Shown here piece by piece: positions 52,055-54,190 of a stretch of DNA of 64,000 bases (positions are counted from its first letter, which is position 1; each line of letters opens with the position of its first letter). Position numbers and translations under genes: made by a program. Under the pieces are notes generated by a model that did not search any database, was not told the origin of the DNA, and saw only the letters and a program-made list of their open reading frames with translations. Origin of the DNA: Octopus vulgaris (Eukaryota); assembly GCA_951406725.2 (NCBI GenBank), contig OX597815.1, positions 156,798,001 to 156,862,000 of the forward strand, read 5' to 3'.

Positions 52055-52407
52055 TATAGGTGCAGAAATGACGGTCGATTCCTAATCGGGTAGACCCGGT
52101 ATTAGTTCCACTGCGTAGCAGTGGACAAGTGTTTTCTACCATAAGCCCAGGCCTACAGTGTGAGTGAAATAAGTAGACAGATACTGACTGTTAAAAAGTG
52201 CATCATATATGTATGTGCATGTGTGAACGTATTTATGTGTGGTGCACCTTTGTATTTGTTATTTACATTATTTACATTCGACGGATATTTGTCCTCATCT
52301 TGTTGCTAAAAAAACGTTTCGTCTGATATACCCTCCAACCTTCACCAGGTGTCTTGGGGGAAATTTCGAACCTGGATTCTCATTCCTAGGGTATTTTTCG
52401 ATGCTGC

Positions 52408-52440
<33 letters not shown>

Positions 52441-52443
52441 TCG

Positions 52444-52515
52444 GGACACTGCTTGTATCGAACTCGGCATTTTGGGGTTAGTAGCCCGCATTTTTAACCA
52501 CTACGCTATATACGC
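52444..52515 (-). promoter_or_regulatory. tRNA-like Pol III promoter (A and B boxes)
   Basis: tagcgtagtggttaa (A box), anticodon-like arm cgggctactaacccc, gagttcgatac (B box); the + copy at 52604-52655 keeps the A box but lacks the B box. Confidence 0.75.
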
Positions 52516-52653
52516 ATGGGCAATTATGGAATAAATTTTAGGGTTTATAAATCTAATCCCTAATTATATTATAAGCCCTAAAATTCACTCCATAATTGCC
52601 GACGGGCATATGGCGTAGTGGTTAAGAGCGCGGGTTACTAACCCCAGATTCCC

Positions 52654-52688
<35 letters not shown>

Positions 52689-52739
52689 GCATCGAAAAAT
52701 ATCTTAGGAATGAGAACCTAGGTTTGAAATTTCCCCCAT

Positions 52740-52785
52740 GACACCTGACGAAGTCTGGAGGGTATACCAGCCGAAACGTTGTGTT
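52740..52785 (+). ncRNA. Type I hammerhead ribozyme motif
   Basis: GACAC-CTGACGA-A-GTCTGG agggtata CCAGCC-GAAA-CG-T-T-GTGTT; palindromic ACGT stem III; the - copy at ~52308-52353 has a mutated core CTGGTGA. Confidence 0.8.
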
Positions 52786-54190
52786 AACAACAAACAAGAT
52801 GAGGACAAATATCCTTCAAAGGTAAATAATGTAAATAATGTACATAATTTCTCATCTCTTAACTATAGAGCTGTGTCTTTGTGTTTGTGTTTCACCGCTT
52901 GACAATTTAGTGGTTCGGTATAAATAGACGGATTTCATCTACTTAGCCCTTCAACGTAGTGTCCTAACAATGTTTTTACATTTTAATGACTGAAACAAAG
53001 GAGAAAAATAGAAAGGAAAGAGGTGCACGGAGAGAGGCGGAGAATAAAAGAATCAGAAGAAAACGTCACCAACAGATATCTGTTACAGACCCGACAATAC
53101 TGATAGAGATCGAATAAAATGTTATATCCGCAGGTTCAATAGAACAGATGGTGCAATGCGTATATGAGCCTGATCCATCATCTATCTAGGACTGCTTTTG
53201 GACCACCTGAGCCGGTCTACGATCAATGGTGCTCCAGTACTACCTTCCCAAGTTTTTTATTTTCGGGAATAGTATATCTAGGCGTATTCTTTACAAGCAT
53301 CTTAAAACAATGTTGCTAACTTCTACCTAACCTTCCCATTCATTATCTTCTTTCTCCTTTCTCTCTCTACTCTCTCTACTCCCTTATCATTTGTTCTCTC
53401 AAGAATATTGGGAGAAGAAACCATACGTTATCTTTGAATGCGGTCGTAGACATGATTTGTAATCTATAGTGTAATTGTTTCATTTAAATTTGTAATGTGC
53501 CCACAACAGAATCCGATTTCTGCTTTCAGTTTCTGTTAGTTTCAATCACATAAAAATCGTATAACGAATTTCGACAGAACCTACTACAACTAAAATATAT
53601 ATTCTGTATCCAGCGTTAAGCATTACTCTCTCACGATTTCATTTTAACAATTCTATTTCCATTGAATCAATTTACAAGCACTCAAAAGACAAGAAACCAC
53701 ATGTATTTGTTGAGCGACAGCTATATTCATTTTTAAAATTACACAATGTAACACATGTTTTGTTTATTAGTACTTTTTGATGTTCATATATGCATTTTTT
53801 CCCACTAAATTCAAAAATCATATTCGTTTTGACGTAACATCGATAGTTATTTATTTATTCTTAATTTCATATTTGCTCGTTACGTTTATAACTTTTCTCT
53901 ACAGCACTTTGTTGGTTTAATCTATTTTAGTATTGTAAAGATAATTACACAACATTTAGTATTTTTTCATATATTGAAAGGTATTTAGGAAGTATAATAT
54001 TAGTTAGAACAAAAAGAAACAAAACTCTGCACTGTAAATGCCTTGATAACTCTTTTCTTAAGATGAGAAGTGCTTTGATGATCGATATTTTCTGCTAGCT
54101 CACTCTGATTTGGAAAGTGAGACTCCGAAGTCGTTCTTGGTACGAAACCTTCCTCCTTTTCTTGGCTGCTGCTATTGTTGACTCTTCAGA

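Follow-up and report, generated by a model that had tools for sequence, protein, structure and literature searches.

A head-to-head pair of Penelope pseudo-LTR copies in Octopus vulgaris carries a tRNA-derived segment that may set the start of the element's RNA

We analyzed a stretch of 64,000 nucleotides (nt) from Octopus vulgaris (assembly GCA_951406725.2, contig OX597815.1, positions 156,798,001 to 156,862,000 of the forward strand; hereafter the window), in which two related arms on opposite strands each contain a tRNA-like segment and a hammerhead ribozyme motif (Table 1). Both arms are truncated ends, or pseudo-long terminal repeats (pseudo-LTRs), of an abundant autonomous protein-coding Penelope retrotransposon. 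With a probability of roughly 55%, we consider that the pair is one Penelope insertion made of two 5'-truncated pseudo-LTR copies placed head to head, and that the tRNA-derived segment is likely the promoter that sets the RNA start. RNA polymerase III (Pol III) possibly acts at this segment; that it would transcribe the whole coding unit is a more tentative proposition. What is unusual is a tRNA-derived segment with consensus A and B boxes in the pseudo-LTR of an autonomous Penelope. The original prediction had instead described a Pol III-driven, ribozyme-processed, non-autonomous hybrid of a short interspersed element (SINE) and a retrozyme, moved by a Penelope reverse transcriptase (RT).

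The inverted arrangement itself is real: the arms are complementary at 83–93% in blocks, and the arm-against-arm alignment holds 250 identical positions in 372 columns, non-homologous flank counted in. As first described, the A box is present in both arms, the B box only in the minus arm and an (AAT)n tract in each; the tail is confined to the plus arm. The tRNA-like segment had also been taken for the head of each arm. It is not, for 35–47 nt more precede it in both arms, which begin in the last codons or the stop of an open reading frame (ORF) and continue through a spacer; likewise, the supposed AT-rich tail turned out to be N-terminal coding sequence of the Penelope ORF. The plus-arm hammerhead, announced as canonical, does have an intact core, and stems I and II form when folded, but the pairing is imperfect at one stem-II mismatch; its folding energy is no better than that of shuffled sequences (z −0.33). 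The reported position of the pair inside a SINE was borne out. Its flanks are the two halves of one abundant older tRNA-SINE and are collinear, with the right flank scoring a mean of 32.5 just downstream of 35 left-flank matches against 19.9 in control stretches.

Across the loci of the family (numbered with the prefix L), the unit runs in the order ORF stop, 37-nt spacer, 73-nt tRNA-like segment, (AAT)n, start codon, hammerhead, N-terminal coding sequence and remaining ORF, with a length of about 3 kb. Longer copies run upstream into the ORF, and in 44 of the 49 copies that include the ORF end the segment directly follows the stop (3 of the 5 misses retain its first bases). On the other side, 29 loci join the tail to further sequence that is the N-terminal part of the ORF, and in L225 the frame that opens at a start codon ahead of the hammerhead and reads on across the tail matches the N-terminal end of the full-length homologue P0003 in an alignment (score 194). 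This continuity, from the ORF end on one side and from the tail into the ORF on the other, identifies the arm as a pseudo-LTR. The proposed link to Penelope therefore holds, including the match of the hammerhead and tail to an autonomous element, whereas the notion of a non-autonomous chimera does not, the whole arm being the pseudo-LTR of an autonomous family. The segment is also found upstream of the ORF start in L229, L230, L240, L462, L475, L476 and L485, and the 3' end is repeated there, as in a pseudo-LTR, in L189, L223, L225, L226, L229, L240 and L485. A candidate GT-AG intron of 38–47 nt in the tail, which would frame a start codon, was rejected: its joint was absent among the joints listed from three RNA runs (depth past the junction about 10), and the unspliced frame already matches P0003.

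The protein search for the ORF scored 150 of 4952 candidates. Locus L141 holds a single frame of 569 amino acids with RT motifs (RVT_1, E = 2.7e-6, 27.7 bits, below the cut-off of 29.6), and 2923 of 7999 scored proteins are homologous to it at E ≤ 1e-20. PF00078 and/or PF26215 occur in nearly all of the best 120 homologues; the nearest, 53–68% identical, are RT proteins with the same domain set, one cluster of them barnacle-named. The Pfam GIY-YIG model matched neither L079 nor L141, and PF01541 occurs in 3 of the 120 listed homologues; GIY-YIG-like and CCHH residues were seen by eye in the ORF, and we take them to correspond to the motifs of those names. The family almost certainly belongs to the Penelope-like elements. 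With regard to the Penelope/Poseidon clade, in which a Zn-finger linker is not expected, an RT tree of 38 rows (29 of the 120 listed homologues, no named clade references) was examined together with the linker of the ORF, which lacks the CxxC motif seen in a fragment at L044. That fragment (2393–3037, plus strand) comes from a second Penelope in the same genome, with a CxxC linker and a weak GIY-YIG match, and is presumably Neptune-like. A search with homologue P0023 for a sister Penelope family in the genome returned top matches that largely coincide with the known loci, and viral contigs gave no match. As to distribution, the nearest named relatives (53%, P0006 cluster) are barnacle proteins and no named mollusc protein is among the best 120 homologues; read runs under five organism labels contain about half of the words of L229. 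A patchy distribution or horizontal transfer of the family is possible. Penelope ORFs were also met at 20 loci (L439–L458) of bacterial metagenome-assembled genomes, most likely as host contamination.

We regard the 73-nt segment as tRNA-like because a better-kept copy aligns, weakly, across the full RF00005 model (11.9 bits, E = 6.6), because alignments with the tRNA genes of the genome reach a top z of about 6–7 against shuffles (26 tRNA sequences, few isotypes), because both boxes fit the consensus (A, TRGCNNARYGG; B, GTTCRANNC) with a spacing of 34 nt in 106 copies, and because the A/B-box matrix score of 20.9 was equalled by 1 of 1000 shuffles. The family segment thus has the tRNA-derived A and B boxes of a tRNA-SINE. 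In the window no Rfam model reached its gathering score and ARAGORN predicted no tRNA, an E-value scan of the inverted pair matched neither a tRNA nor a hammerhead family, and Rfam scans of 8 family loci returned chance matches to repeats only. No donor was singled out among the 26 tRNA sequences, the best alignments with tRNA-Arg, tRNA-Thr and tRNA-Ala being about equal, nor among other SINE heads (at most 18.9 bits).

In the genome (2.8 Gb, 227 contigs), exact matches numbered 2048 for the 34-nt hammerhead motif, 740 for the B-box region, 438 for the A-box region and 347 for the upstream spacer, with 0 for each reversed control. Scaled by the share of exact matches in sampled loci, which is rough (7–21 exact matches each), these become about 18,000, 14,600, 10,800 and 2,200 copies, so that the estimate drops from about 10,800 at the A box to about 2,200 in the spacer just upstream. 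The family thus counts about 10,000–18,000 copies, the short ones outnumbering those linked to the ORF about 5:1. Boxes and hammerhead are tied together in most copies, as the original prediction implied: tRNA-like or ORF-end sequence is present in 49 of 70 hammerhead-anchored insertions (consecutive matches on contig 1), and 26 of 30 A-box matches have the hammerhead part at most about 400 nt downstream (counted by eye). An inverted partner accompanies 43 of the same 70 insertions. Most copies are single or inverted, direct repeats occurring at few loci such as L032 and L095, and the head-to-tail tandem units of a retrozyme, each with its hammerhead, are not what is found. Rather, the family displays 5' truncation, an inverted copy, an optional tail of 30–40 nt and, in its pseudo-LTR, a putative minimal hammerhead with core and stems. 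According to Craig et al. (PMC8557442), Penelope elements in general show 5' truncation, are accompanied by a truncated copy in inverse orientation and bear a tail at one of their ends.

Read depth over the unit has two 3'-end steps about 35–40 nt apart. In the three RNA runs the two strands of the short unit have similar coverage, about 100-fold higher than that of the ORF start; no molecule-end peaks were seen in these runs, which consist of fragmented unstranded cDNA (6% of each run was read) and cannot show the promoter type. Ribozyme processing is doubtful, as copies retain sequence on either side of the cleavage site and the Poseidon element of Anolis (Frangieh et al., PMC11167929) mainly uses uncleaved RNA. 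At eight loci (L081, L259, L263, L264, L267, L277, L284 and L289), copies truncated in (AAT)n join directly onto other repeats at the AAT-rich 3' ends of the latter, which suggests ATT-site cutting or AAT-mediated joining.

Are the short copies an element of their own? Their excess, their start at the tRNA 5' end and their retention of both boxes would fit a self-propagating, non-autonomous lineage whose scattered members are transcribed by Pol III and moved by the Penelope protein, and schistosomes offer a precedent in Sm-alpha (PMC6765202). The short copies also show a little less divergence (0.044 vs 0.059 and 0.038 vs 0.045), though many were chosen by an exact-match anchor. Yet 66 short and 56 ORF-linked copies share their alleles: 4 of about 246 columns differ at p < 0.02, about the number expected by chance, and none is diagnostic. 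No internal deletion defines the short family. In a SINE the tRNA head would stand at the 5' end of a non-coding element that forms a lineage of its own, but here that head comes after an ORF stop, the tail codes for protein, and the window's own arms extend into that stop. Short copies end, moreover, at the RT start sites, and the Anolis protein needs RNA about 55 nt further (PMC11167929), a requirement that would presumably extend to the octopus protein. We therefore judge a separate SINE/retrozyme hybrid improbable.

The evidence for an RNA start at the segment comes from the 5' ends of copies. With position 1 placed near the stop, the tRNA-like segment starts at 38 and the A box spans 45–55. 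Of 40 at-risk insertions reaching the A box, 29 end at positions 30–45 (0.045 per nt), compared with 9 of 49 at 46–79 (0.005 per nt), 0 of 11 at 9–29 and about 0.002 per nt in the ORF; the end rate at the tRNA start is thus 8–25 times that elsewhere. In a separate set of 70 A-box-anchored copies, 60 end at 30–45, 37 of them inverted and 23 without an inverted partner. End calls by the script are uncertain by several bases, and on inspection L080 and L085 (of the 40) and L047 and L051 (of the 70) reach the ORF. Because this reading of the pile-up predicts that Pol III terminators should be missing, runs of four T (T4) were counted. In the commonest letters of the sense strand, T4 is absent from all three overlapping tracks (790, 900 and 1707 nt, hammerhead to stop), where independent, identically distributed letters would give 1.45, 1.20 and 2.94. 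Across 24 family ORFs there are 6 T4 runs versus 27.4 expected after synonymous shuffling, compared with 28 versus 29.4 in 13 unrelated ORFs and 215 versus 174 in 32 distant Penelopes; in 18 further distant elements T4 runs were not clearly depleted.

A possible second case emerged among the distant Penelopes, where the box layout was seen in 1 of 29 intervals tested. L362 is a tandem element, 38% identical at the amino acid level, with identical pseudo-LTRs (1904–2147 and 4695–4938) and an ORF that begins just ahead of the hammerhead core; box-like motifs lie 158 nt before the hammerhead and are followed by AAT repeats. Its box score is 21.6 (0 of 1000 shuffles; the boxes were spotted by eye before scoring), while the 28 other intervals, some of which may be defined by false hammerhead matches, score 4.1–11.6. 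L362 is one of three distant elements without T4 in the matched region. Under the more tentative reading in which Pol III transcribes the whole coding unit, it would suggest that capture of a tRNA promoter arose more than once.

How such copies could arise may be outlined with the help of the Anolis element, whose RT starts at two internal sites in the early ORF, which has both target strands cut and extended, prefers ATT, and does not require hammerhead cleavage, uncleaved RNA being its main substrate (PMC11167929). In the octopus family, transcription would start about 30–40 nt past the stop, where the tRNA-like segment begins, with Pol III as the simplest candidate, and RT would initiate inside the RNA at two early-ORF sites about 35 nt apart, as in the Anolis element. 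Initiation at the first site would copy only the first 250–300 nt or so and could yield thousands of SINE-looking by-products with no separate lineage, whereas longer tandem transcripts, with initiation at their downstream pseudo-LTR, would give ORF-bearing copies, the class to which the window arms would belong. Since those arms reach back past the tRNA start as far as the ORF stop, they cannot have come from a transcript starting at the segment. Each of the two cut target strands would prime a cDNA, and a head-to-head junction would form between the two cDNAs, in many cases at a short palindrome next to the A box. If initiation is internal, the shortest products would extend from the first RT start site to the RNA 5' end, and their ends would mark the transcription start. 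Further still, and doubtfully, the coding retrotransposon may be transcribed by Pol III from end to end, with a captured tRNA promoter, terminators purged from the 3-kb unit, uncapped RNA that is translated, and SINE-like copies as by-products.

Several observations weigh against a promoter at the segment or against the weight given to the T runs. The depletion concerns one master sequence and not 24 independent cases (Poisson P about 0.01–0.04), family ORFs are also low in G4 runs (4 vs 12), and L141 alone is not depleted of T4 (3 vs 3.2). In L362 the full ORF is only mildly depleted (2 vs 4.1), Rfam does not call its segment a tRNA, and in the tree described above it is not sister to the octopus family. 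The octopus segment has no cloverleaf fold (z 0.10). L485 spans ORF end, segment and ORF start, and RNAs therefore do not always start at the segment. Just 5 of the 58 copies that enter the ORF start include any of the segment, among them one whose start lies at 36 and L485, which passes through; these 58 copies do not separate promoter and fold-back models. Penelope of Drosophila, finally, has a TATA-less internal promoter and a spliced intron (PMC2377424).

The same pile-up might also be explained without a promoter. The segment would then be a passenger that the 3' untranslated region of the master element acquired a single time, as a SINE head or a piece of tRNA; the RNA would be made by RNA polymerase II or by read-through, and the ends would result from snap-back of the nascent cDNA or annealing of two cDNAs at the palindrome next to the A box. 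This account, the main alternative, which we consider possible but rather unlikely, draws on a hairpin that overlaps the pile-up and is extended as a perfect palindrome in 19 of the 70 copies, with a reversed loop in 9, and on an excess of inversion among the piled-up insertions (24 of 29, vs 43 of 70 overall). The lack of boxes in 28 of the 29 distant Penelope intervals and of an outstanding donor agrees with it as well. Fold-back clearly shapes many junctions: of the 70, 19 show fold-back extension, 9 natural upstream sequence, 6 a short stem only and 36 neither. It leaves unexplained, however, the 23 of 60 piled-up copies without an inverted partner, and most partners start elsewhere, far downstream of the palindrome. 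None of the 70 ends falls at positions 24–29, where the natural stem is longest, and a passenger predicts neither the absent T runs nor the second case in L362.

Several known systems resemble the family. Like Poseidon of Anolis carolinensis (PMC11167929) and Penelope of Drosophila virilis (PMC2377424), the octopus unit has a single ORF with RT and a putative C-terminal endonuclease, a pseudo-LTR with a hammerhead over the ORF start, a tail that is optional owing to two 3' ends, an inverted copy alongside 5' truncation (PMC8557442) and an expected promoter in the pseudo-LTR; unlike them, it has a tRNA A/B-box segment and (AAT)n in the pseudo-LTR, an end pile-up, no T4 runs and no intron that we could find. 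Schistosoma Sm-alpha and Sj-alpha (PMC6765202, PMC2770079) are also high-copy retroposed repeats in which a type-I hammerhead comes after a Pol III promoter of tRNA type, but they are non-coding, often tandem and equipped with canonical, efficient hammerheads, where the octopus repeat is the end of a coding element with a minimal in-frame hammerhead and inverted pairs. TRIMp3 elements (Cassandra, Helenus and Ajax; PMC10886601) likewise have small RNA-derived Pol III boxes inside a terminal repeat, the boxes kept and the cloverleaf lost; these are non-autonomous LTR elements of 311–1263 bp, whereas the octopus unit is autonomous and measures about 3 kb. Non-LTR retrozymes (PMC7229834; bioRxiv 10.64898/2026.07.22.740005) are also short hammerhead repeats related to Penelope pseudo-LTRs, but head-to-tail tandem with circular RNAs and, in the available text, no mention of a tRNA or Pol III feature, while octopus copies are mostly single or inverted.

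A Pol III promoter combined with a hammerhead thus has a precedent in Sm-alpha and Sj-alpha, although no counterpart was found inside an autonomous Penelope. Nowhere in the available text of the literature consulted, including PMC6155905, are tRNA-derived boxes described for the pseudo-LTR of a Penelope; Repbase, Dfam or SINEBase may already contain the consensus, with the boxes noticed or not. The word tRNA is absent from the available text of PMC4209133, as are both tRNA and Pol III from that of bioRxiv 10.64898/2026.07.22.740005. A study that lists 190 Penelope-like families for an octopus describes none of them family by family in the part available (PMC13282606).

Were the tRNA-type promoter to drive the family, Pol III would be transcribing a coding retrotransposon. 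To our knowledge, Pol III is not known to drive any protein-coding mobile element and is thought to be limited to short non-coding ones, and we know of very few cases in which the mode of Penelope transcription has been established. The family would also show how SINE-like hammerhead repeats originate from a Penelope pseudo-LTR, a direct route to elements of the Sm-alpha type, and its sharp end pile-up would be a genomic read-out of the RNA start that supports internal initiation. Should the segment be a passenger, the family would be an ordinary Penelope, if an abundant one, that has picked up a tRNA fragment; it would then caution that fragments of this kind become annotated as SINEs.

Table 1. 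Features of the inverted pair and its flanks (positions in the window)
Feature	Positions	Strand	Source
5' part of older tRNA-SINE split by the Penelope insertion	52100–52258	+	
Left arm: inverted 5'-truncated copy, short 3' end (tail absent); begins in last ORF codons, stop 52545–52547	52259–52557	-	
Decayed hammerhead: changed core, stem I broken	52309–52353	-	
tRNA-derived segment; A box 52498–52508, B box 52455–52465	52443–52515	-	
Filler joining left and right arms	52558–52568	.	
Right arm: 5'-truncated Penelope pseudo-LTR copy, long 3' end including optional tail	52569–52872	+	
End of Penelope ORF, stop codon 52572–52574; spacer bearing 5' strand of hairpin	52569–52603	+	
tRNA-derived segment; A box 52611–52621, B box lost through a 26-nt deletion	52604–52655	+	
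(AAT)n tract	52655–52688	+	
N-terminal coding part of Penelope ORF, from its likely start codon at 52710; broken in this arm	52710–52872	+	
Minimal type-I hammerhead in coding frame, predicted cut after 52780	52740–52785	+	Motif definition, available text of PMC4209133
3' part of the same older tRNA-SINE	52873–52935	+	

Other repeats were noted in the window to the left of the pair. Inverted repeats of 33 nt (79%; 51201–51233 and 52038–52070, about 800 nt apart) surround a transposase-like stretch, possibly of mariner type, and six degenerate copies of an 18-nt-period repeat lie at 50673–50789. On the minus strand, an open frame of 1039 codons (39823–42942), the first 55 or so of them microsatellite, appears intact and presumably represents a long interspersed element of CR1/L2 type with apurinic/apyrimidinic (AP) endonuclease and RT.
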